From an uncultured Candidatus Binatia bacterium (GTDB lineage Bacteria; Desulfobacterota; Binatia; Bin18), in NCBI GenBank assembly GCA_965214605.1, contig OZ243961.1, forward strand, positions 2,304,001 to 2,368,000: a DNA stretch of 64,000 nt. Direction: 5' to 3'. This document shows, piece after piece, positions 18-13,136 of the stretch (positions are counted from its first letter, which is position 1; each line of letters begins with the position of its first letter). The notes beneath the pieces are model-generated. The model was not told the origin of the DNA and searched no databases. It saw nothing but the letters and a program-made list of their open reading frames with translations. The position numbers and the translations under genes are program-made.

Positions 18-3000
18 GGTCTATCCCCGCGTGTACGGGGGAACCCGGCCGCTCGGGGTCCTGAAAAAACGCAGGCAAGGTCTATCCCCGCGTGTACGGG
101 GGAACCAGTGCGGGGCTCCCCTTGGCGGTGGAGGTGACGGGTCTATCCCCGCGTGTACGGGGGAACCTCCAGGATGGGATCCGAGATAGATCTGATCTGG
201 GGTCTATCCCCGCGTGTACGGGGGAACCGGATTATGCGCTGAACACGCCAGACGCTACACCGGTCTATCCCCGCGTGTACGGGGGAACCACTCAAACATA
301 GAAGCCTTCTCATGAACATCCAGGTCTATCCCCGCGTGTACGGGGGAACCTTTGTAAAGATTTTTATGAGGGGAGAAATAAACGGTCTATCCCCGCGTGT
401 ACGGGGGAACCTTGCTGGTGTCCAGGCGAATCGGTGCGCCGTCAGGTCTATCCCCGCGTGTACGGGGGAACCCGCTTCAACCCGGACCGTAAAGGGCCGG
501 AGTTGGGTCTATCCCCGCGTGTACGGGGGAACCCAATATCGACCCCCTCGGCAGTCGTGTCAAAGGGGTCTATCCCCGCGTGTACGGGGGAACCCTGGAA
601 AGTGCAGACCAAGGCAGGAACCAGGCAGGTCTATCCCCGCGTGTACGGGGGAACCTCGTGCCTGAGATAGGCCAGGATCTCGTCCCGGGGTCTATCCCCG
701 CGTGTACGGGGGAACCGGCGGCAGTGAGTTTGACCCGCGTGAGGGGGAGGGTCTATCCCCGCGTGTACGGGGGAACCCAGATGTTATCGCCTTTTGTTCC
801 TGTTCCCACGGGTCTATCCCCGCGTGTACGGGGGAACCGCCATCGCTGCGGGGCAAAACCGGGCCTTCAGCGGTCTATCCCCGCGTGTACGGGGGAACCG
901 CAAAATGACTTTCCACCTCACGGGATGGGAGCGGTCTATCCCCGCGTGTACGGGGGAACCGCCTACAACGGCCACACGCGCACTTTTCTCACGGGTCTAT
1001 CCCCGCGTGTACGGGGGAACCGGCGGGAGTTTGCGGGTTGTTTTAGGCATCTGAGGTCTATCCCCGCGTGTACGGGGGAACCAACTGCTGCTGGTCGTGA
1101 TACCGCTCATGGCAAGGTCTATCCCCGCGTGTACGGGGGAACCATATCGGTGGAGCTCCTGGAGCTTTTCATACGAGGTCTATCCCCGCGTGTACGGGGG
1201 AACCGATCCCCCTCGATTTGGATACCGAAATATCGACGGTCTATCCCCGCGTGTACGGGGGAACCTGTGTCACCACCCCGTCTTCCGGGGTCAAAATAGG
1301 TCTATCCCCGCGTGTACGGGGGAACCGTGGACCTGCGGGTCCACAGTGCCGAGCGCGGCGGTCTATCCCCGCGTGTACGGGGGAACCGTCACGGCAGGCG
1401 GCGCGGCCTACCCGGCGCGCGGTCTATCCCCGCGTGTACGGGGGAACCCGTGACCCACTCGTCGCTGTGTCCACGGATCAAGGTCTATCCCCGCGTGTAC
1501 GGGGGAACCATGTTTTTCCGCTTTTCCCCGGACCATATTTGCGGTCTATCCCCGCGTGTACGGGGGAACCTGTTTTGTCCCGGACCATATTTGCTCACGC
1601 AGGGGTCTATCCCCGCGTGTACGGGGGAACCCTTGTGTCGCAAGAGCTTAAGCAGTCTATTGCAGGTCTATCCCCGCGTGTACGGGGGAACCGTCCATGC
1701 CGTGCAAGTAATGCGGAGTCCGTAAGGTCTATCCCCGCGTGTACGGGGGAACCCTGGTGGGTGGACGTAGGGGTCTAGCGGCCTCCGGTCTATCCCCGCG
1801 TGTACGGGGGAACCGACTGGACCCCAGAGGAGAAGGCCAAGGTCCGCGGTCTATCCCCGCGTGTACGGGGGAACCCTGGACGGCCGTGGGGCTGGACGGC
1901 CGTGGGGCGGTCTATCCCCGCGTGTACGGGGGAACCCGGGCGGGGATCGTCAGCAGGAAGCTTAGTCTGGGTCTATCCCCGCGTGTACGGGGGAACCGAG
2001 GTCGCGGTGAGCGACGTCCCCTGGAGGCGGGGTCTATCCCCGCGTGTACGGGGGAACCGAAATGACCGGGCGTTGAAGGCCCGGACGTCGGGGTCTATCC
2101 CCGCGTGTACGGGGGAACCCCTCTTTGCGCCACACGTTACTCTATAAAGGCAGGTCTATCCCCGCGTGTACGGGGGAACCGCCGGCGCGGGCGGCTATAC
2201 GCCCGAGGAGGCGGGTCTATCCCCGCGTGTACGGGGGAACCTTCGCCAGGGCTTGGTTGACGAACAGCAGCGTGGGTCTATCCCCGCGTGTACGGGGGAA
2301 CCGTCGGGCGGGACGATCCCCAACTCGCGGAGGTAGGTCTATCCCCGCGTGTACGGGGGAACCCGTCTAGCTGCGTGCGGCCGGTATAGCTCAAGCGGTC
2401 TATCCCCGCGTGTACGGGGGAACCGGCACTTAGCATAGAAAACGACACGCGTCATACATCCCCGCGTGTCATAGAAGGTAGGTCTATCCCCGCGTGTACG
2501 GGGGAACCTCTGGTGTCGATATGCGCACGATTGCGAAATCGGGTCTATCCCCGCGTGTACGGGGGAACCTATATACGCTGCTCTGTCCCCCGCGTCAACC
2601 CCGGTCTATCCCCGCGTGTACGGGGGAACCTTCGGGTTGTAGAACAACGTAGTGTAATCCTTCGGTCTATCCCCGCGTGTACGGGGGAACCCGCTACCGT
2701 CCATGCGTGTCGGCCGCTAAGGGCGGTCTATCCCCGCGTGTACGGGGGAACCTTGGGTACGACGGGGCGCGTCGCCCCGTGCGTGGGTCTATCCCCGCGT
2801 GTACGGGGGAACCCGACTGGTTCCAGCGCGTCAAAGAGCGGCCCGAGGTCTATCCCCGCGTGTACGGGGGAACCCCTGTGCAAGAAAGAATGCCAAAACG
2901 ACATCAAGGTCTATCCCCGCGTGTACGGGGGAACCCCAGACAGTGGGTCTGGACACGAGGACACATGAGGTCTATCCCCGCGTGTACGGGGGAACCAGCA

Positions 3001-3667
3001 TCGGGAGGAGCTCGAGGTCGAGCCGGTCCGGTCTATCCCCGCGTGTACGGGGGAACCGATGCGTCGCCAGGATGGTACAGGACAGAAGAAGGTCTATCCC
3101 CGCGTGTACGGGGGAACCCCCGGCTCACCCTCCCGGCTCCAGCCCGGCTCCGGTCTATCCCCGCGTGTACGGGGGAACCTTGGGTTGTATGGACACCAAG
3201 TGTCAGCAAATAGGTCTATCCCCGCGTGTACGGGGGAACCCAGGAGACTCTATATATGACTCACGCTATTCAGGGTCTATCCCCGCGTGTACGGGGGAAC
3301 CCATGGAGTACATCAAGGAGCATGCATAAAATATGGTCTATCCCCGCGTGTACGGGGGAACCCGGCACTGATCCCACAGCTCTATATAAGAGAAAGGTCT
3401 ATCCCCGCGTGTACGGGGGAACCATTTTATTTGTCTTTTTTTATTCCAAAGGGTAAGGTCTATCCCCGCGTGTACGGGGGAACCATATGAGGTACATCAC
3501 ACCACATGTATAAAGTAGGTCTATCCCCGCGTGTACGGGGGAACCCTATCACGAACTTAGTGCTTTTATTTTTAAAAAGGTCTATCCCCGCGTGTACGGG
3601 GGAACCGGCGCTCTCCAGGACCGCCCCTTTCTTGGGCGGGGTCTATCCCCGCGTGTACGGGGGAACC
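18..3667 (-). CRISPR. Type I-E CRISPR array: 60 identical 28-bp repeats (+ strand GGTCTATCCCCGCGTGTACGGGGGAACC; crRNA sense GGTTCCCCCGTACACGCGGGGATAGACC), 33-nt spacers, 61-bp period; probably truncated by the window start
   Basis: Repeats start at 18, 79, 140 ... 2397, then 2481 ... 3640. The CCCCG/CGGGG hairpin and ATAGACC 5'-handle resemble the E. coli I-E repeat on the minus strand, the same strand as the cas genes. Confidence 0.99.
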
Positions 3668-3743: not shown

Positions 3744-4058
3744 CTAAGTATCCTGACGCGGGCAGATTCGTCTGGAGAGAATGATACCCTCCTGATCCAC
3801 CAACTCGACGGGAGGCGTGCCGAGGACGCGCACGGCTTGCCCACCTGGTTCATGCGAGTCCTGCCACGTCATGATGATAGATCCTCCCCCAAGCTCCAAG
3901 AACCATTCTGAGATCACCGTCCAGATTTGCTTTCGCACACGGGAGGAAAGCGTTGGAGAGGTGTATATTCCGGGAGCGATCTCAAGCATACACGAAGCAA
4001 GAAACCCGCGGATCCGCGGGGCAACATCACGAGTGACTACTACTGTCATCGTTGTCAA
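3744..4058 (-). CDS. cas2: Type I-E CRISPR-associated Cas2e
   Basis: MTVVVTRDVAPRIRGFLASCMLEIAPGIY is a typical Cas2e N-terminus; gene follows cas1. Confidence 0.95.
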   Translation of the reverse strand: MTTMTVVVTRDVAPRIRGFLASCMLEIAPGIYTSPTLSSRVRKQIWTVISEWFLELGGGSIIMTWQDSHEPGGQAVRVLGTPPVELVDQEGIILSRRICPRQDT

Positions 4059-4908
4059 TCAACTGAATGATCCGGTCAATCATCTTTGAGATGATTTTCG
4101 TCTGTCTGAATCGTCGCCCGGCCAGCCGTCTGACATGCCGTTCAAGCGGGATATGGCCGTTGGCATAATACTGGCTGACTGCCTCAAAAGCGACCGGGAT
4201 AGTGACTTCGGTTCGGTAGAGGTCTGCTATGTCCAGGCAAAAGGCGATGGAAGCGTCCTCGTGGATAAAGCCCAGCGGGGGCAAGGTTCCGGTTGCTGCT
4301 ACGGCGACAATGGCCGCGGCTTCCGTAGCAGTGGCCGCGTGGTTGATAGCCTGGTTGGGGTCGTCGGCTATTTCCGGGTGCTGACGGTCATAGCGCCGTC
4401 CGTGCCAGTCAATGCCATAGCGCTCAGCCAGCAGTTGGTAGGATTTCTTCATCCGCGCCCCTTCGATACCGCGCATGATGGTGATGTCCTGTTCGGGCAG
4501 GACCTCGCCTAAACGCCAGGCATACATTCGGCGTGCGATCCGTAGCCGCACCCGTCGGTCGTTCCAGAGTTTCGCCTGACGGCGTGCCCTTCGTGAGTCG
4601 TTCGGACCAAAGGGCTGGGCGCTGTACATGCGCACCCCATCTTCTCCAACGGCCACGAGGCCGGTTCCGTGTCGGGCCAGCAGCCGGAAAACGTCGTGGC
4701 TGACGGTCGAGCCAGGCCCGAGCAGGATGAATGAGATGTTCTGAAACGGGATAGCATAATTTCCAGCCTGCATGTCTGCAGATCCTGCGGTGCGAAAACA
4801 CAACGTCCCATCCTCTACAGTAAGATTTCCTCGCGACAGCCACAACAAGCCGTGGCGGTCAGCGTGGGGCACTCGGGCCGCCTCCAGCCCTAATCTGCCT
4901 TTCAGCAA
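4027..4908 (-). CDS. cas1: Type I-E CRISPR-associated integrase Cas1e
   Basis: LLGPGSTVSHD, RGIEGARMK, LGFIH and FCLDIADLY motifs. Confidence 0.97.
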   Translation of the reverse strand: MLKGRLGLEAARVPHADRHGLLWLSRGNLTVEDGTLCFRTAGSADMQAGNYAIPFQNISFILLGPGSTVSHDVFRLLARHGTGLVAVGEDGVRMYSAQPFGPNDSRRARRQAKLWNDRRVRLRIARRMYAWRLGEVLPEQDITIMRGIEGARMKKSYQLLAERYGIDWHGRRYDRQHPEIADDPNQAINHAATATEAAAIVAVAATGTLPPLGFIHEDASIAFCLDIADLYRTEVTIPVAFEAVSQYYANGHIPLERHVRRLAGRRFRQTKIISKMIDRIIQLIDNDDSSSHS

Positions 4909-4956: not shown

Positions 4957-5688
4957 CTAGTTAGCGGTAACGCCGGCGGGCCGCAGGAGCAGCATCCCAT
5001 ACCCATAGGCGCGGTGCCGTCCAATGCCTTGAGCCAGTAGATTGGCGAAGGCGTCAGCGTCGGTAATGATGAGCGTGCCCCGCATGATCGCGTCTGGCCC
5101 TTCGCTGTAGCGAGCGTGACGCTTGCGCAAGGCACGAGTACGCTGAAAGGAGTACAGGGTGGCGCTTTCCAGCTGGGCGCCGCCCCGTCGTCGGAACTGT
5201 TCCGTTAGCCAATCGGCATAGACCTCCTCACGGCTACGCGGCATTTCTCCCTTTAGATGCTGAACTGCTTCCGATAAAAAAATATCGCATTCCTTGCCCG
5301 GACGGCAAGTGGAGTTGCGGGAGAGGCGCACGATAGGACGCACGCGCGTTTCAAAGCCCAAGCGCTTTCCGACCTGCCACCTTGACGGCATCGGCTTGCT
5401 GTTGAGGCCAGCGGCGGGGATGATAAGGGCTTGTAGCGGGTCGGCGTAGACGCTTGCCGCCTCGCGCAGGGTCTCGGCGTCAGCGCATCCATAACCGTAG
5501 AGGACGCCGCGGGATTGAGCGCGGCCGATTATCAGGCGAAAGGGTTGGGGCGCTGGCTTGCCGAACATTTCCCTGAGAAGGCAGTGCATGGCGTGATCGC
5601 TATCCTGTAAGTCCTTTAAACCCGTCCAGCGTCGGAAGTTTCGCATGTCCATGTCGGCTCGTATCATGTGGAGTAATGCCGTAGTCAT
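4957..5688 (-). CDS. cas6e: Cas6e/Cse3 crRNA-processing endoribonuclease
   Basis: C-terminal G-loop GIGRHRAYGYGMLLL; N-terminal His (DHAMH). Confidence 0.95.
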   Translation of the reverse strand: MTTALLHMIRADMDMRNFRRWTGLKDLQDSDHAMHCLLREMFGKPAPQPFRLIIGRAQSRGVLYGYGCADAETLREAASVYADPLQALIIPAAGLNSKPMPSRWQVGKRLGFETRVRPIVRLSRNSTCRPGKECDIFLSEAVQHLKGEMPRSREEVYADWLTEQFRRRGGAQLESATLYSFQRTRALRKRHARYSEGPDAIMRGTLIITDADAFANLLAQGIGRHRAYGYGMLLLRPAGVTAN

Positions 5689-5697
5689 ACTATCTCC

Positions 5698-6417
5698 TTA
5701 CTTACCCCCTATCATCCCTTCGCACACCAGCCTCCCGCCGCCGTGCAGGCCAGAGAGCCAGTCGCGCCGGTCGGTAAGCATGTAGCTCCGACTGGGGACA
5801 ATCTCTGCTGTGCCTTCAGCGTCAGGCCATAGGAGTTGCCGGGAGGGTGGTTCATTCGACTCATCCGGCTCAGCGGCTAGTAGGGCGGCCAGGGCGGTCT
5901 CGCCGTCGCTGAAACCACCAAACAGGGGCGCTGACGGCAGGCACGATTTACGTCCGATGAACAGCGGACGCGCCGGCTCCTGCAGCGCCTCGGCCAAGTC
6001 ATCCAGTGTCGGCGCGTCCGTTGCCAATGCTAGGCGCATGGCAACGCTGACACGCATATCAGCGAAGTAGTCACGATAGCGCAGATGGGGCGCGTCATAG
6101 GTATTCGGACCGCCGGCTCGGCCTTCGGGCTGTCCGCGTGTAGTCCACGCCTTGTCGCCAGCCCCGAGTTGCGCCGTCTGAAAGTCGGTCAGACGTGCCC
6201 CGCCAGCCGGCTCCCGGTCAATGCGGACGGCGAAAACCAGCCGGTCTTGCAGGCGCTGATGCTGCTCCCGCTCAATGCGCCGCCAGCCTAAGGCATTAGC
6301 GAACAGACCCGTCAGCATGGACGCTGCTGGAAACCGGCGGATGACCCCATAATTATCGATTGCCTCGCCGCCAAAGGCCATGAGGGGGCTTTCCAGGTTC
6401 AGAATCAAGTGCCGCAT
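5698..6417 (-). CDS. cas5e: Cas5e/CasD
   Basis: LESPLMAFGG, FPAASMLTGLFANALG, RDYFAD and LFIGRKSC motifs; normal length, no HNH fusion. Confidence 0.95.
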   Translation of the reverse strand: MRHLILNLESPLMAFGGEAIDNYGVIRRFPAASMLTGLFANALGWRRIEREQHQRLQDRLVFAVRIDREPAGGARLTDFQTAQLGAGDKAWTTRGQPEGRAGGPNTYDAPHLRYRDYFADMRVSVAMRLALATDAPTLDDLAEALQEPARPLFIGRKSCLPSAPLFGGFSDGETALAALLAAEPDESNEPPSRQLLWPDAEGTAEIVPSRSYMLTDRRDWLSGLHGGGRLVCEGMIGGK

Positions 6418-6419
6418 GG

Positions 6420-7595
6420 TTAGCCACCGTTACGAACCGCGTCCGCGGCCCAGCTCGCGAGGTCGTCGAGGCAGACGCGCTTGGCGCCGGGGAGCTCGCA
6501 GTCCTCAACTGTCATGACACATCGGTTTTCCCGCGCTCCATATGCGGCGTCCAGCTTGCCCAGATGTGCGGACAGAGAAGCCGTTGCCGCTGCGATCTGG
6601 GCCTGAGCGGGAGTACGGAAGGCGTTAGCCAGGCTGCGCGGCTGGCGTGTGCCAGCCTCAATTAGCATCAGGTCGGCACAGCTATAGGGGGCGGTAGAGC
6701 CCAGCTTTGCCCCAGGCGACACCGTAGCAATAATATGAACCAGATGCTCAAGAACTTTGCCGGTCAACGTTTTGTCCGCATTCTCCCATTCGTTGGCGGC
6801 ACAGCCCTCCAGATTAGAAACCAACCCTGGTACGTCTACAACCACATAGCCGTAAAACAGCCCTGCGGTCAGTTCCATATCGCCGATGTGGGCCGCGCCA
6901 GGGTCTTCATCCTCGCTCTGAAGGTCGTCCACCACCGAGAAATAATCGCTTTCGCTCTCTTCCTGATGCACGGTGAAGGCATGGGCGACATGAATAGCAG
7001 CATCAATGTTCGCGCCGGGGTCAGAAGTCACCATCCGGCCAAACATCGCGCCTTCCAGTCCGCCGGGTAGGCGCGCCTGCTCTCGAAAAGCGCGGAAGTT
7101 GTTGCCCTCGCCTTGGCGCCCCTTGAAAAGCTCATCTGCTGCCTTTTTTGCCGCGTCGGCATTATTGGCATGTTCGGTGCAGATAGCCTCTGCCTTTTTC
7201 CGGAGATACTCCACTTCAGGCAGACCGAGTAGGAGGGGCTGTCGCGCGCTTTCGGACGTCCCACTAGACCCGTACACGCCGACGTTGAAAGCGTTTTCGA
7301 CTGCTTCAAGAACGTCGTCAGCGATGCCGCCGGCCGTGCGTAATGGCTGCATCACCTTTCGCTCAACGACATTCCGGGAGCGTACTGCTTCCTGCGCGCC
7401 GGCAATGTTACGGAGGGAGAATTCATCATCTGCCACCCGCCAGTGTCGCTTGAGACACTGGGACGATATGCGGGTCCGCACCGTGCCGCCAAAGGGCATC
7501 CGCTTAGCGAGGCCGCTGTCATCACGGTTCAGCAGTGCCGCTGGGTAGGAATGCAGGGTGTGGATCTGTAGAAAACGTGCTTTGGTCATTGTCAA
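6420..7595 (-). CDS. cas7e: Cas7e/Cse4/CasC backbone subunit
   Basis: LNRDDSGLAK, RISSQCLKRHWR, FGRM, AHAFTVH and DYFSVVDDL motifs. Confidence 0.97.
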   Translation of the reverse strand: MTMTKARFLQIHTLHSYPAALLNRDDSGLAKRMPFGGTVRTRISSQCLKRHWRVADDEFSLRNIAGAQEAVRSRNVVERKVMQPLRTAGGIADDVLEAVENAFNVGVYGSSGTSESARQPLLLGLPEVEYLRKKAEAICTEHANNADAAKKAADELFKGRQGEGNNFRAFREQARLPGGLEGAMFGRMVTSDPGANIDAAIHVAHAFTVHQEESESDYFSVVDDLQSEDEDPGAAHIGDMELTAGLFYGYVVVDVPGLVSNLEGCAANEWENADKTLTGKVLEHLVHIIATVSPGAKLGSTAPYSCADLMLIEAGTRQPRSLANAFRTPAQAQIAAATASLSAHLGKLDAAYGARENRCVMTVEDCELPGAKRVCLDDLASWAADAVRNGG

Positions 7596-7616: not shown

Positions 7617-8540
7617 CTAGTTTGTTGATGGTTGGGAGCTGAGCCGTTCTGCCTGATAGTAGGCGCGGGCGATACGGCGGCGTGCTTCTTCAGCCTGTTC
7701 TTCGTTGTACCCATCGTTCAGAATGAAGTATGCCATTTCATGCCAGTCGAAGACTTGGTTGGCGGAGGCCAACATTCGGAACAGCCGTGCCAGCAGTACA
7801 TACAGCATCGGTCCCCGAGCCGTTAGCAGTCGGTTCAGGCGTGTCTCGCTGTAGAAGGCGGTTGTCCGCTTGGTTTCACCGCCGAGGAACAGCGCTCTCC
7901 CAATCCTGGTTTTATTATGAGCGGAGCGTCTGTCCGCGGTGCCGGTCATCAGCGCGATACCGTGCATGATGAGCGCCCATTTGCGGTCGAAGGTACGATT
8001 GTCATAGCGTGGCAGCAGCCGCCAGAAGGCTGTTGCATCGGGGGTGTCCGGGGCCATCCGTCGTAATTCAGCTAGCTCCCTGCTGGACAAGTCACCGATA
8101 TCCCGGACAAGTTCGCATACAATAGCCGTAAGGGTAGGTCGAGGAGGCAGCCAGGGAGTGCTACGGACGACCTTGGACGACGGCTCGATAATCTGTCCGG
8201 TCTTATCTGGAGGACCGTCCCTTAAGATCTTCTCAATAGAGTTCCAATCTTTAGGACGCCAAACAAAGGTGGGGACTTGATGGGCAAAATCCTCCAGAAA
8301 CTCTTTCTGCTCATTAGACAGGCCGCCGTCGTCTGTTTTGAGTTCCGCAGCGATCATTGTACGGCGTCCATTTTTGTCCCTGTAGCGCAAGATCAAATCT
8401 GGGAACCCGCGTGGAATTGGTGCTTCCTTATAAGCATAAGCGCGGTCGGGAATATGGAATGGAGACCAGCCGTGGGATTTCGCTTCGGCTTCCACGGCTC
8501 GCTGGAACTCCCATTCATTCTTGAACGTAATCTCTGACAT
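7617..8540 (-). CDS. cse2: Cse2/Cas11 with an N-terminal VRR-NUC-like (PD-(D/E)XK) nuclease domain
   Basis: Occupies the cse2 slot. The C-terminal ~170 aa have Cse2 motifs (LAELRR, FWRLL, SETRLNRLL, FDW, RRRIARAYY). The N-terminal ~110 aa have EWEFQ..V, GW..FH, GFPDL, AELK...G.LS..Q and VWRP.DW. GAGGAGG RBS upstream. Confidence 0.9.
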   Translation of the reverse strand: MSEITFKNEWEFQRAVEAEAKSHGWSPFHIPDRAYAYKEAPIPRGFPDLILRYRDKNGRRTMIAAELKTDDGGLSNEQKEFLEDFAHQVPTFVWRPKDWNSIEKILRDGPPDKTGQIIEPSSKVVRSTPWLPPRPTLTAIVCELVRDIGDLSSRELAELRRMAPDTPDATAFWRLLPRYDNRTFDRKWALIMHGIALMTGTADRRSAHNKTRIGRALFLGGETKRTTAFYSETRLNRLLTARGPMLYVLLARLFRMLASANQVFDWHEMAYFILNDGYNEEQAEEARRRIARAYYQAERLSSQPSTN

Positions 8541-8542
8541 AA

Positions 8543-10240
8543 TCACTCCTCCTCGGTGTCGAACAGAAATGGCAGCCCCTTCGGCCCGCGCAGTCGCCCC
8601 TCAAATAGTCTCTCAGCGTTGGCATGGGCGCGGTAGCGGTGAATGGCGGGGCAGGGCAGGGCAGCCGTGGCGTCGCGGAGGACGCGGCGAGCGTGATCAA
8701 CTACCCCGTCTTTGCGGTTCATCAGCCAGGCCTCTCGGATGTGCTTGCGTTCAGTGTTCTCGGCCTCAAACTCGGTCTGTAGATCGTCAAAGAACCGGAC
8801 GTCAACGATTGCGTCGAGCTTGTCTCCCCAAGGATTGGCCAACCCTCGCTGCTCAGAGCTGGTATTGTTGCCCTCACCACGAGCGGCAAATGTTGCAATG
8901 GCGTGGCGCAAAATGCGCTGGACAATAGCAATCTGAGCAATACGGTCTTTGGCAATGTCGCCCAATTCCTGAGCCAGCATCCCAGAGCGCAGCATAGCTG
9001 TTCTGGCCTTGCTCCTGATGGGGATAATGCGTTCGTGATAGCCTTCGGTTTTGCCTTGGCCCCGCACCATTGCCCGGGCGACAAGCTGCATCGTTGCTGA
9101 GGAGCGCTGTTCGGCCTGTGTTGGCTGTAGCAAGAGCGGATGTTCCCATGAGGTCAGATATTCCGTAATCCGCTTGTAGGTAAAGCCGCCGGCGGGCAGA
9201 GTCAGGGCTTTCTCTTCTTTCGGGTTGATGGGGGTCCACGGGTCGCCCAGTCTGCCTTTGTGGTCTTTCGCCTCAATGCGCTCTGCTTTGGAACTTGCCC
9301 TGACCGCGCTGAGCTTGAGCTTGCCGTCCGCCCCGAAGCACAAGCGGATACGCCGGCAAATCTCGATGTAGTGGGAGGCCAGTTGGTTCGGCAGCAACTT
9401 TTCCGTTTTGGTCCCATTCCAGGGAAGGGTCCACAGTAGGCCGATATCGCCATCGGTCGTTGAAGGACTGCTCAGCAGTATCATGATATCGCGCCGTGCG
9501 TGCGCACCCGGTCGTGTGGACGGCGTCAGTGTGAAGGCCGGTCGGCTGCCGAATCCGCCATTCATCCGCGAGATTCCGTAATTGCCGGCCCCGCTGAATC
9601 CCTGCATCGTTTGCAGAGTAATTAGCGCAAACAGCCAGGAGTCCATGCTTGCCTCAGTCGCCACGGTCGATTTGAGGTCGTGGTTCTTAGATGTGACCAG
9701 CATGTCCAGCTCGTCGGGTGTTGCGATGGGGGTCTTGTAGTCTTTGGCCTTGTCTTCTGAGGAGGTCGGTGGCTGCATGAAGGCGGGAAGGCTGAAGTCG
9801 TCCACCACCAGCTGCCAGGGCTCGTCGCCCGGAGAGTCAGGCGTCAGCCCACGGATCAAGCTAGTCCATTCTGTCGCATCTACTGGTGGTTCACTAAGAC
9901 CGGCCCGGCGTATTGCCATCGTGCCGAGTTGGACGAAAAAGGCGTGGCAGGCGTGTCGTTGGTGGGGACGTAGTACGGGAAAAGCGTCTAGTTCATCCCG
10001 CATCAACGCGGTGTAGACTTCCGGCAACGACGCCTCTCTGCCTGAGCCGCTGCCTGCCGTATCAATCCGAATCAACGGTTCTGTGAGAATGTTGAACATG
10101 GGCCTTAACCTCTCTCTCAAGTGCCTCTGGTCAGAAGCATCTCCGTGTTGTATTTCTACCCGTGTGGTCCCAAGTTGGGTCTGCAACGTCAGGGATGGGG
10201 GAGGACGGGCTGCAGCTTGAACAGCATCTGTCATAATCAT
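8543..10240 (-). CDS. cas8e: Cas8e/Cse1/CasA large subunit (conventional start probably ATG at 10099, MFNILTEPLIR)
   Basis: FNILTEPLIR, LRPHQRHA.HAF.VQL, AFMQP, KNHDLK, GNYGISRMNGG, YIEICRRIRL, GDPW.P and RGQGKTEGYHER motifs. Confidence 0.92.
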   Translation of the reverse strand: MIMTDAVQAAARPPPSLTLQTQLGTTRVEIQHGDASDQRHLRERLRPMFNILTEPLIRIDTAGSGSGREASLPEVYTALMRDELDAFPVLRPHQRHACHAFFVQLGTMAIRRAGLSEPPVDATEWTSLIRGLTPDSPGDEPWQLVVDDFSLPAFMQPPTSSEDKAKDYKTPIATPDELDMLVTSKNHDLKSTVATEASMDSWLFALITLQTMQGFSGAGNYGISRMNGGFGSRPAFTLTPSTRPGAHARRDIMILLSSPSTTDGDIGLLWTLPWNGTKTEKLLPNQLASHYIEICRRIRLCFGADGKLKLSAVRASSKAERIEAKDHKGRLGDPWTPINPKEEKALTLPAGGFTYKRITEYLTSWEHPLLLQPTQAEQRSSATMQLVARAMVRGQGKTEGYHERIIPIRSKARTAMLRSGMLAQELGDIAKDRIAQIAIVQRILRHAIATFAARGEGNNTSSEQRGLANPWGDKLDAIVDVRFFDDLQTEFEAENTERKHIREAWLMNRKDGVVDHARRVLRDATAALPCPAIHRYRAHANAERLFEGRLRGPKGLPFLFDTEEE

Positions 10241-10297
10241 TCCTCCTAGAATCTTGCGAGAATATTTTGTCGCACTATTCTCTATTTAGCAACGCAA

Positions 10298-10326
10298 AGA
10301 TTAGAGAAAGAAGTTTTATTTGTCAA
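10298..10326 (-). promoter_or_regulatory. Sigma70-type promoter of the cas8e-cas2 operon: TTGACA-N17-TAATCT
   Basis: + strand TGTCAA at 10321-10326 and AGATTA at 10298-10303, with exactly 17 bp between them, upstream of cas8e. Confidence 0.8.
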
Positions 10327-10335
10327 TCCCCATCC

Positions 10336-10424
10336 ATCCTACCCCGCAGCACGGGGATAGACCGCTTTGCGTTGCGAGGTGAACTCTCCGCGCTAAAGTT
10401 TCCCCGCAAACGCGGGGGCAGTGT
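10336..10424 (+). ncRNA. crRNA-like mini-array (degenerate repeat - 32-nt spacer - degenerate repeat); CreR/CreA-like Cas-regulating RNA
   Basis: 10336-10364 ends in CGGGGATAGACCG (array 3' half and handle). Spacer 10365-10396. 10397-10424 AGTTTCCCCGCAAACGCGGGG keeps the hairpin. The first 11 spacer nt match 10289-10299 on the minus strand, with an AAT PAM. Confidence 0.85.
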
Positions 10425-10466
10425 TCTGTTGGTGGTTTTGTCTAGGTGGCTTAGGGCTGGTGTTGC

Positions 10467-13136
10467 TCATCGTATCCGCCCTAGACCTAGGCGGCCATAG
10501 TGGAACTGTGCGTTGCCGACCTGAAAGATAAAACCGTCGTCTGTCAACTCAGGCGCGACCGGCTCTTCACTAGCTAAGTTGCGGGCCAGATGGTGGGGAA
10601 TCGTTATTTGGGAGATTGTTTCGCGGCTGAAGGGGCTGATCGGTGCCGGCTCCAACTCAACCGTTATACCCTCGTCGCCCAGCCGAGTCCGTATTTTCTC
10701 CTCCAGGGATCCAAAAATCACTTCCTGGTTGTCTACAAAAAAGGATTTATCACGCCGGACGACCGCACTCCGGGCAGTCAGACCCTCGGCAAGTTCGGTC
10801 CCCTTTAGCGTAGTAGCGTGAACCCGCCAGGCGTCTCCCAACTCTGCGGTGATGGCCTCCAGTGTCTCAATGTGGGTTGTTCGTTCGACCAGTTCTCGGT
10901 TCATCTCCGGGATGCGCCATAGACTGGCGCGCTTCGCATGATCTACAATCAGCCGCCTCGTGGCCTCCAGGACACGCAGGTCCTCATACACATGACCGTG
11001 CGGCCCCAGGCCATTCCGACCCGAACCTTTTGCCAGCAGGGGCGAGAGGTCCGTGTCGGTCGGCAGGAGCACGATGCAGATCGGTGTCTCATATCCGGCC
11101 GGCCGGTCAGGCCGTTGGTGTCGGTGTAAGCGGCCAATCCGCTGAAGCAGCACATCCATTGGGCACAGATCGGTTATGAGAAGGTCGGCGTCTATATCGA
11201 GAGATTGCTCCAGCGTCTGGGTGCCCACGACAACGCGTCCGCCGGGACGGCGGTTTTTGCCAAGCTGCTCCTCAACCGCTCTATCTAGTTGGAGACGGTC
11301 GCCAGCGGCGAACCGGCCGTGGTGGAGCGTGAAAACGTCCCCGCAGGCATACAGCAAACCACGTTCGTCGGACGGGACGCTTTTTTCCAGTGTTTGCTGG
11401 GTGTCGACCGCGTGACCGACCGTGTTGCGAATGACCAGAGCTTTTGCGCCGGCGCGGGCCGCGTGCAGGCTGCGTTCCGCGACCTGAGCGAAGTCATCCA
11501 TGGCCGCGGAGGCTTCAATTCGTACTGTTTTTTCTTTTCCATTGTGAGCGACAGCGACCATACGCTCACCGCCGTTCGCCTGGATTGTGACCGCGGGGTA
11601 GGGTGCTCTGATTGCCTCGCTGAGAGGGGGCATGTCTTGCAAACCGGCAAAATAGCGACGACGGGCCACAGAACCTAGTGTGGCCGACATCAACACCGCG
11701 TAGCCACCGGCGCTGATATGGGCGTCAAGCAGAGTCTTGAGAATACTGCTCATATAGGGGTCGGAGGCGTGTACTTCGTCCACTACCAGCAGACTGCGTG
11801 CTAGGCAGGCGGCGCGCAGATGGGCGTGTTTCACTTTGAGGGCTGCCATCATGGCCTGATCTACGGTGCCCACGGCAATTTGCGCCGCCAAGTAGCGTTT
11901 GGCGCTTTCTGCGGCCCACCGGCGTTTTTCGGTGGCGACGTCGGGATGATCGTCCCACCAGACCTCATAGTTTGGGAGATGTTTGCCTCCGGCATCTCCG
12001 GCCCGTACATAGCCGGGGACCGCTAAGACGGGCTCCGGACCGGTGTCTCTGGGAAACAGATTTGTGATGAATCGCACAACGCGCCCGTGCATCTGGCTGG
12101 CGGCCGCGCGAGTCGGTAGGGCAAAGTACAGTCCATCCACCAGTTCGGCCCGGTACATATGGGCAAAGCGCCACAAGGCAGCCTCAGTTTTGCCGGAGCC
12201 GGTTTCAGACTCGATGATGACCAGCCGCTCGTCCGTCGGGACCGCTTTTGCCGACCGCTGGATAGGATTGGGCGTTGCGTTGGGGATGCTGAACAGGTCG
12301 CCAAAATCCGGCAGGGCTGCCAGCTGGCGAAAGATCTTTCGCTGGCTTTTCAGATTCAACCCGATGTCCGAAACCGCACGGAGGGCGTTTTGTCGCGCGG
12401 TGTTGATGTAGTCGTTGCGTGACTCGGCGCAAAACGGAAAATTGCGTTCGTCAGAGCCAATCCAGTCGGCCAGCATGCATAGGCCCAGGAACATATGTTG
12501 GAAGGCAGGAGTGGATGGCAGGAGTGGCGTGTTGGACGTGAAGGCGGACGGGAACCATTGTCGCACGAGGTGGCTGATGCGCTCCACGCAGGCCTGGGGG
12601 TGTAACTCGCCAAAGGCGCGCCATGCTGAAGGGTTGGGTTGCCGCGTGTCCTCCAGTTGCAGGGGGAGGCCGTGATGCGACAGCGCAGCGATGAACAACC
12701 CGCAGACGGTCTCGCCGTCCTTATCGTCCCAGGTCAACAAATCATCCCACCAGCCCAGCGCGTCAAAAAACCAGGCGGATGTTTTTTCATCCTTGTTGTT
12801 CAGGATGGGCGTCAGATCGGCTATGTGGCCGGCGCGGGGTGGCGTTTTCTTGTACGCCGGCGCATCCGTGGGATGCCAGATGCGCGTCTGAAAGCCGACG
12901 TTGACCTTGCCGATATCGTGGAGAGCGGCAAATACTGCCAGCCGCGCCTCGGTTGCGCTGTCTATGACCTCCAGCCCGCCGGCCTGTGCCAGGCGTTGCC
13001 TGATGGTCGGCTGCGCCAGCAGTGTCTCGAAGCAGGCACCGACATCGGCCATGTGGTGCTCCAATAGATGAATGCGGCGCGGGTTGTCCCGGTCCGATTT
13101 TGCCCAGAATGCCCTGGTATATGCCGCGGCTGTCAT
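10467..13136 (-). CDS. cas3: Cas3 HD nuclease-helicase
   Basis: HLLEHH, HDIGK, SHHG and LADWIGS (HD domain); ETGSGKTE, DEVH, SAT and QRIGRLHRH (SF2 helicase). Confidence 0.97.
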   Translation of the reverse strand: MTAAAYTRAFWAKSDRDNPRRIHLLEHHMADVGACFETLLAQPTIRQRLAQAGGLEVIDSATEARLAVFAALHDIGKVNVGFQTRIWHPTDAPAYKKTPPRAGHIADLTPILNNKDEKTSAWFFDALGWWDDLLTWDDKDGETVCGLFIAALSHHGLPLQLEDTRQPNPSAWRAFGELHPQACVERISHLVRQWFPSAFTSNTPLLPSTPAFQHMFLGLCMLADWIGSDERNFPFCAESRNDYINTARQNALRAVSDIGLNLKSQRKIFRQLAALPDFGDLFSIPNATPNPIQRSAKAVPTDERLVIIESETGSGKTEAALWRFAHMYRAELVDGLYFALPTRAAASQMHGRVVRFITNLFPRDTGPEPVLAVPGYVRAGDAGGKHLPNYEVWWDDHPDVATEKRRWAAESAKRYLAAQIAVGTVDQAMMAALKVKHAHLRAACLARSLLVVDEVHASDPYMSSILKTLLDAHISAGGYAVLMSATLGSVARRRYFAGLQDMPPLSEAIRAPYPAVTIQANGGERMVAVAHNGKEKTVRIEASAAMDDFAQVAERSLHAARAGAKALVIRNTVGHAVDTQQTLEKSVPSDERGLLYACGDVFTLHHGRFAAGDRLQLDRAVEEQLGKNRRPGGRVVVGTQTLEQSLDIDADLLITDLCPMDVLLQRIGRLHRHQRPDRPAGYETPICIVLLPTDTDLSPLLAKGSGRNGLGPHGHVYEDLRVLEATRRLIVDHAKRASLWRIPEMNRELVERTTHIETLEAITAELGDAWRVHATTLKGTELAEGLTARSAVVRRDKSFFVDNQEVIFGSLEEKIRTRLGDEGITVELEPAPISPFSRETISQITIPHHLARNLASEEPVAPELTDDGFIFQVGNAQFHYGRLGLGRIR

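Follow-up and report, generated by a model that had tools for sequence, protein, structure and literature searches.

A probable CreR-type mini-array between cas3 and cas8e in the type I-E locus of a Candidatus Binatia genome

The stretch of DNA analysed here (the window, 64 kb; coordinates are window positions unless stated otherwise) lies within the 4.37-Mb genome of an uncultured Candidatus Binatia bacterium. It carries a complete type I-E CRISPR-Cas (short palindromic repeats, clustered and regularly interspaced, with their associated genes) system on its minus strand, typed with NCBIfam. In the intergenic region between cas3 and cas8e, on the plus strand and opposite to the cas genes and the main array, lies a chromosomal mini-array: two degenerate repeats (psiR1 and psiR2) around a single spacer-like guide (psiS). 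Judged from its sequence, this element is quite probably a CreR-type RNA that guides Cascade to repress its own operon. The same reading had been proposed in a preliminary description of this DNA; it is supported here and fits every feature that can be tested in silico. Its support comes from the anatomy of the element, a target that is unique in the genome, and conservation with covariation in related loci.

Anatomy and target of the window mini-array

The element has the arrangement of CreR-type RNAs, with two repeat-like sequences around one spacer-like sequence in a cas intergenic region. What is left of each repeat is handle-specific, as psiR1 retains the 5′ handle and psiR2 the 3′-handle hairpin while the rest has decayed. 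In psiR1, a hairpin of 5 base pairs (bp) with a loop of 5 nucleotides (nt), CCCCGCAGCACGGGG at 10342-10356, is followed by the 8-nt 5′ handle ATAGACCG at 10357-10364, and the 5′-handle part is identical to the array repeat at 7/7 positions. In psiR2, which contains the hairpin CCCCGCAAACGCGGGG at 10402-10417, the 3′-handle part agrees with the array repeat at 17/21 positions and the distal part at 2/7; the distal handle part is gone, GCAGTGT standing where the array repeat has ATAGACC. A repeat-core pattern matched 60 times on the minus strand (the main array) and once on the plus strand (10342-10363), with no match in 100 shuffles, and the element scored 68.4 bits with the covariance model R1 described below. 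The preliminary description, a repeat-like unit, a 32-nt spacer and a second repeat-like hairpin with 19/28 identity lying antisense to the main array, is correct to the base. An ordinary adaptive CRISPR array was considered as an identity for the element and rejected: the repeats match the array repeat at 16/28 and 19/28 positions rather than being identical, and three genomes of the genus share homologous versions of its only spacer. Searches of the window intergenic region and leader with Rfam and ARAGORN returned nothing relevant.

The first 11 bases of psiS, CTTTGCGTTGC, occur exactly twice in the window, at 10365-10375 on the plus strand and at 10299-10289 on the minus strand; two or more copies were found in none of 100 shuffles. 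AAT stands directly 5′ of the minus-strand copy, so that the flank and the first two matched bases fall inside the -10 hexamer of a predicted Cascade-operon promoter. Both observations had been made before, namely the exact recurrence of the 11 bases after AAT within TTGACA-N17-TAATCT and the overlap of AAT and seed with the -10 box, and both hold, for a promoter that is itself predicted and whose -10 matches the consensus at 3/6 positions. Across the whole genome, the cas8e-promoter target is the sole site that joins an AAN flank with a seed of at least 11; there are ten other sites with a seed of at least 11 (position 6 ignored), and none has an AAN flank. Shuffled spacers equalled the observed seed length in 7/2000 trials (over 6.2 kb, with the protospacer-adjacent motif, PAM, and position unused). 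The complementarity is of the CreR type, being partial, PAM-proximal, about 10 nt or more in length and directed at the predicted promoter region of the cas effector genes. From TTGACA-17-TAATCT, the start site would lie near 10291, and the first ATG and GGAGG are found ~55 nt downstream of the target. The same promoter layout, TTGACA-17-TAATTT, is present in a second genome of the genus (G007, see below).

In the mechanism that we propose, the plus strand would be transcribed through psiR1, psiS and psiR2, and Cas6e would cut at the base of each hairpin to give an RNA of ~61 nt, consisting of the handle ATAGACCG, the 32-nt guide and a 21-nt hairpin handle. Once loaded with this RNA, Cascade would recognise AAT at 10302-10300, and guide positions 1-11 (and 13) would pair with the template strand where it spans the -10 box and the probable start site. 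The promoter gated in this way would drive the leader open reading frame (ORF), cas8e, cse2, cas7, cas5 and cas6e. Limited to about a dozen base pairs, the R-loop could not be completed, and Cascade would act as a repressor of its own operon; because the R-loop would be incomplete, Cas3, and presumably the nuclease fused to Cse2 as well, would not be licensed. By analogy with Salmonella CreR, repression would be eased when abundant CRISPR RNAs (crRNAs) titrate Cascade or when anti-CRISPR proteins block it. The feedback and anti-CRISPR-sensing roles suggested here are carried over from the Salmonella work.

Mini-arrays and targets in related loci

A set of 80 loci was collected from genome assemblies by a Cas8e search. 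Among 40 related genomes searched at the DNA level, the intergenic region turned up in two that belong to the genus of the window, G007 (locus L090) and G005 (locus L091). A hairpin-pair scan detected repeat-spacer-repeat units ahead of cas8e in many of these loci, and 21 of the units went into the covariance model R1. With R1, 35 of the 82 loci showed a mini-array upstream of cas8e (each with E <1e-5), these being 33 of the 80 Cas8e relatives and both same-genus loci. Including that of the window there are 36 mini-arrays, 23 antisense to cas8e and 13 in the sense orientation just upstream of it. Targets were sought with the 32 nt that follow the 8-nt handle, taking the best match within ±450 nt on both strands over guide positions 1-17 minus 6 and 12. 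The site was chosen without use of the flank, for which AAN has a chance of 1 in 16. When seeds had to be uninterrupted, no target was found for L020, L022, L039 or most of the sense-oriented arrays; the mismatch-tolerant score recovered these.

The best site was AAN-flanked, with at least 12/15 positions paired, in 35/36 mini-arrays (AAT 16, AAC 13, AAG 3, AAA 3), and the protospacer lay on the cas8e-sense strand in 33/35. When spacers were shuffled (200 per locus), the observed score was reached by none in 23/35 loci and by at most 7/200 in all 35. The exception among the 36 is G005, where AAT is followed by 10/10 seed positions with position 6 mismatched, inside a TATAAT; its score is only 10/15. 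A TTGACA lies at most 42 nt upstream of the flank in 18/35 loci. In most antisense loci the distance from TTGACA to the flank is 18-28 nt, which places the target on the -10 box or the start site. In L016, L021 and L022, the scan called promoters (TTGACA-17-TATGCT, TTGACA-18-TACCAT and TTGACA-17-TAAAAT) whose ends lie 1-5 nt short of the flank. The comparative set places targets on or just past the -10 box.

Guide and target covary. Among the 35 loci there are 30 distinct seeds, and spacers agree with their own target at 9.14/10 seed positions on average and with the targets of other loci at 3.58/10, although the former value is inflated by best-site selection. Within the genus, the spacer and target of the window both read CTTTGCGTTGC; G007 has the spacer TTTTGTGTTGC and the target AAT-TTTTGTGTTTC, and G005 the spacer CCTTGCACTAC and the target AAT-CCTTGTACTAC. 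The three spacers are homologous, and the changes relative to the window at guide positions 1, 2, 7, 8 and 10 are present in both spacer and target. The preliminary description had named covariation of seed and target in homologous loci as a check, and the outcome is positive on both scales, with paired changes in two same-genus genomes and 30 locus-specific seeds among 35. Mismatches occur at guide positions 6, 12 and 18, the ones flipped out by Cascade, in 25, 30 and 27 of the 35 loci and at positions 1-5, 7-11, 13 and 14 in 0-6 of them, a contrast that is partly built in, and to that degree tells against the reading, because the scoring ignored positions 6, 12 and 18. Nonetheless, a decaying perfect match would not be expected to leave exactly the flipped-out positions at the chance level of mismatch.

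These comparisons bear on the possibility that the window element is non-functional debris, either a decayed array fragment or an aborted acquisition, whose promoter match arose by chance or is the trace of a fading self-acquired spacer. Degenerate repeats, a match of only 11 nt, local shuffles that equal it and the lack of a called promoter for the mini-array are all what such debris might look like. What it leaves unaccounted for is a conservation pattern that is handle-specific, an AAN-flanked seed that is unique in the genome, the recurrence of the same layout with locus-specific seeds and AAN flanks in 35/36 mini-arrays, the paired seed and target changes within the genus, and guide positions 6, 12 and 18 that vary freely while their neighbours are kept. 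We regard this alternative as already disfavoured and as very improbable.

Further points nevertheless weigh against autorepression in the window itself. Within ±450 nt, shuffled spacers reach the window score of 12/15 in 4/200 trials, and the window ranks with the weakest matches of the mini-array set (12/15, 11 contiguous). A consensus promoter scan of both strands over 10100-10600 called no promoter, because TAATCT has only 3/6 of the -10 consensus. Given the weak -10 and the lack of a call, the Cascade promoter, its start site and the mini-array's own promoter are all putative, and read-through from cas3 could be an alternative route of expression for the operon. The window flank is AAT and not the canonical AAG PAM of Escherichia coli. 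Lastly, two of the 95 array spacers (units 51 and 94) match their own genome perfectly (33/33, at C1:3170433-3170465 and C1:3218149-3218181), and neither match has an AAN flank (the first spacer base is preceded by CG and CC); this is uninformative either way.

As to the motif, ATAGACC is followed in the 95 array units by T in 39, C in 32, G in 21 and A in 3. In the type I-E system of E. coli, the base after the repeat is copied from the last PAM position. If it is PAM-derived here too, AAT, AAC and AAG would fit and AAA would be disfavoured. The comparative set points to a preference for AAT, AAC or AAG in this I-E clade. The genome also holds a second small array at C1:2534820-2535080, in which the repeats are perfect in the first three copies and decay after that; for the first spacer there is a 31/32 match elsewhere in the chromosome (C1:2606567), with the flank TCA.

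The 13 sense-oriented mini-arrays come from more distant loci (L050, L052, L054, L059, L060, L061, L063, L064, L065, L068, L078, L079 and L085). They lie within ~100 nt upstream of cas8e, at ~2830-3035 in most loci. Their AAN-flanked target is on the same strand in 11/13, mostly ~200-290 nt further upstream, and nearby on the opposite strand in L079 and L085. By its placement, the guide of the sense form would be excised from the 5′ leader of the operon itself. L021 (2737-2765, minus strand) and G007 (L090 1448-1475, plus strand) have promoter-like sites from which the mini-array could be transcribed. The -35 of these sites overlaps the mini-array target, so the guide RNA may repress its own gene too; no equivalent self-overlapping promoter was found in the window, where the corresponding stretch is poor.

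The RNA might also act in another way, either as a Cas6e or Cascade decoy, as viral Racr do, or by antisense or convergent interference at the 3′ end of cas3; in either case the promoter match would be secondary. The mini-array does run toward the 3′ end of cas3, whose stop codon is 43 nt away, and the scan called no terminator-like site downstream of psiR2. Decoy and antisense action would leave the conserved AAN-flanked seed matches unexplained, and 13 of the 36 mini-arrays are sense-oriented within the cas8e leader and yet have AAN-flanked targets. We consider this kind of action highly unlikely. A scan of viral contigs with the handle plus seed (19 nt) gave a single hit, a contig that lacks the hairpin and is otherwise dissimilar to the window; given how large the collection is, this is estimated to be at about chance level.

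Leader, gated slot and Cse2 fusion

The features of the window are collected in Table 1. The main array has 60 repeats in the window and 95 in the genome. One of its units measures 84 nt instead of 61 (~2420-2503) and has an apparent truncated repeat remnant inside.

Table 1. Coordinates of the type I-E locus, the mini-array and its predicted target in the window.
Feature	Position	Strand	Remarks
Main CRISPR array	18-3667	-	28-nt repeat GGTTCCCCCGTACACGCGGGGATAGACC, period 61 nt
cas2e	3744-4058	-	
cas1e	4027-4908	-	
cas6e	4957-5688	-	
cas5	5698-6417	-	
cas7	6420-7595	-	
cse2/cas11	7617-8546	-	N-terminal VRR-NUC-like (PD-(D/E)xK) domain
cas8e (cse1)	8543-10100	-	start taken at the family-conserved N-terminus MFNILTEP at 10100; open frame up to 10240
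Leader	10101-10246	-	Shine-Dalgarno GGAGG 10246-10242, ATG 10240 and 10234, ~45-codon frame
Protospacer-like target, cas8e-sense strand	10268-10299	-	exact over 10299-10289 (guide 1-11), position 13 also
Predicted Cascade-operon promoter	10298-10326	-	-35 TTGACA 10326-10321, 17 nt, -10 TAATCT 10303-10298
PAM-like AAT	10300-10302	-	directly 5′ of target, within -10 hexamer
psiR1, degenerate first repeat	10336-10364	+	16/28 identity to array repeat
psiS, spacer-like guide	10365-10396	+	32 nt; bases 1-11 and 13 match target
psiR2, degenerate second repeat	10397-10424	+	AGTTTCCCCGCAAACGCGGGGGCAGTGT; 19/28 identity to array repeat
cas3	10467-13136	-	HD nuclease + helicase

Between the predicted promoter and cas8e, the window has a leader frame (10101-10240) that is open and in frame with cas8e. 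The corresponding ORF of G007 (L090 1213-1419, minus strand) is a separate frame that overlaps the cas8e start. The two peptides (..SLTLQTQ..ASDQ..) share 50% identity over 44 amino acids (aa), and four further database proteins of 60-69 aa, all from close relatives, are homologous to them. These observations raise the possibility that the promoter mainly restrains a harmful or regulatory leader product, as in CreTA, with the whole forming an addiction or anti-anti-CRISPR device. Its attraction is that the first frame past the promoter has a strong GGAGG-ATG, that the peptide is conserved, that the frame is fused to cas8e in the window and separate in G007, that the same slot in relatives holds tRNA-like genes, a DUF3800 gene and a zinc-finger-like ORF, and that control of cargo by mini-arrays is already published (PMC10120712). 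On the other side, the leader peptide matches no Pfam or PADLOC family. The rare-arginine codons of the window leader are not kept in G007, so that a CreT-type RNA that sequesters transfer RNA (tRNA) is unsupported. Moreover, cas8e lies directly downstream in the same transcription unit, which would make for autorepression in any case, and the gap between target and cas8e is just ~15-100 nt in L016, L018, L022, L023, L051 and L058. We therefore hold control of a leader product as the main function to be unlikely.

Several relatives carry other items in this slot. In L020 (2644-2727), L021 (2776-2859) and L035 (2755-2838), which are Chloroflexota-type loci, a tRNA-like gene comes straight after the mini-array target, ahead of cas8e. 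It is a nearly identical 84-nt element with a long variable arm that scores 41.7 bits against the Rfam tRNA model; Rfam at the gathering threshold on whole loci had missed it. Its anticodon loop is UCAGGAG or UCUGGAG, ARAGORN calls it Pro (agg/tgg), and the alignment reads as C at position 33 with the discriminator A73. The D-arm and body are presumably leucine-tRNA-like. A different, 74-nt element resembling tRNA-Ala lies between the target and the sense-oriented mini-array of L068 (2723-2796). In G005 (L091 1600-3064), a DUF3800 gene (E 3.8e-14) and behind it an IS4/5 transposase fragment take the place of cas8e downstream of the TATAAT promoter with its AAT flank. L039 (2658-2957) has a 99-aa zinc-finger-like ORF between target and cas8e. 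In the available text of PMC10120712, tRNA is mentioned solely in the title of one reference.

It is conceivable, if rather doubtful, that a promoter gated by Cascade and a mini-array RNA forms a general cargo slot, beyond cas8e alone. If cargo products harm the cell once Cascade is disabled, such a slot would be a safeguard of the CreTA type whose toxins are of new kinds, a mistranslating tRNA possibly among them. The leader items of the relatives, both tRNA-like genes and small ORFs, are the part most worth following up.

The preliminary description had also noted a nuclease domain fused to Cse2, and this is present as a VRR-NUC-like domain. VRR_NUC is matched below threshold by residues 1-110 of the 309-aa protein (E 6.8e-4; 20.1 bits, the cut-off being 23.8), and in the pattern GFPD...AELK...Q the D, E-x-K and Q are invariant in the 8/8 fused proteins aligned. 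The predicted order of strands and helices in residues 1-110 is only suggestive; the AlphaFold2 model of the fusion (from an 8-row alignment) had a mean predicted local distance difference test score of 49.6, too low to use. Fusions of VRR-NUC in I-E systems are mentioned by Altae-Tran et al. (2023). The fusion occurs in 7/80 related loci, 4 with a mini-array and 3 without, and the two features are therefore independent. They stand together in five loci, the window included. The presence of self-targeting guides beside a nuclease-fused Cse2 in these five loci suggests that partial R-loops do not license the Cse2 nuclease either. That partial R-loops leave this nuclease inactive, as the preliminary description had it, is reasonable speculation.

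Comparison with known systems

The claim that crRNA-like RNAs are established as guides of repression by Cascade agrees with published work (the CreR preprint, PMC10120712 and bioRxiv 10.1101/2024.10.29.618823). In Salmonella enterica type I-E (Liu et al., bioRxiv 10.1101/2023.03.10.532045), CreR is a degenerate mini-CRISPR whose guide matches a site upstream of casA over 15 nt, next to AAG. Acting through E. coli Cascade, it brings about ~8.6-fold repression of PcasA, which is relieved by an excess of crRNA and by AcrIE8. The window element resembles CreR in its position between cas3 and casA/cas8e, in a psiR1 with the 5′ handle and a psiR2 with the 3′ handle, and in its partial match to the predicted promoter region beside a PAM-like motif. 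It differs in having 11 contiguous nt in place of 15, in the flank AAT in place of AAG, and in a target that overlaps the -10 box and precedes the first ATG by ~55 nt, whereas the Salmonella target is ~140 bp upstream of casA. The window locus also has the VRR-NUC-Cse2 fusion and the leader ORF, and its element is known from sequence alone.

In the survey of Shmakov et al. (2023; PMC10120712), 19% of 3741 I-E loci are reported to have mini-arrays, typically between cas3 and cas8 and opposite to cas3, with PAM-flanked partial matches in the cas8 promoter and mismatches at every sixth position; an I-F1 case was validated. The window element shares with these I-E and I-F1 mini-arrays its position, its orientation antisense to cas3, a target in the predicted cas8 promoter beside a PAM-like motif, the every-sixth mismatches and the better conservation of the seed-proximal repeat. 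In contrast, the I-E example of the survey is from E. coli with AAG, and the relatives described here also include a sense form in the cas8e leader. Cooper et al. found that E. coli Cascade binds by seed and PAM while interference and priming need more than 18 bp.

More distant likenesses are found in CreTA and in viral RNAs. As described for CreTA of the type I-B system of Haloarcula hispanica (Li et al. 2021, Science), Cascade would be directed to repress without cleavage by a crRNA-like RNA that is only partially complementary to its target; unlike CreA, which guards the toxin gene creT, the window element has no such gene identified beside it in the window. Viral Cracr and Racr (bioRxiv 10.1101/2024.10.29.618823; PMC10651486) are likewise repeat-like RNAs loaded by Cas proteins, and Cracr target the same cas promoters. 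They are encoded by phages or plasmids and act against the host, whereas the window element is part of a chromosomal cas operon and is vertically conserved. Identity with Racr or Cracr was rejected on this ground, as the element sits in the chromosome between cas3 and cas8e and not on a mobile element.

Since the architecture is published for type I-E, both as CreR and as mini-arrays predicted in ~19% of loci, the window element is not new in kind, and as a concept it opens no new question by itself. For annotation, it is a reminder that intergenic mini-arrays should not be taken for broken arrays or dangerous self-targeting spacers. The 36 loci, with two orientations and 30 different seed and target pairs, make a usable comparative set. 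The differences from published I-E mini-arrays are of degree, namely AAT in place of AAG, 11 contiguous bases and a target on the -10 box itself, and they come with what would be a well-supported example of Cas autoregulation by a guide RNA in a lineage far from the enterobacterial models.

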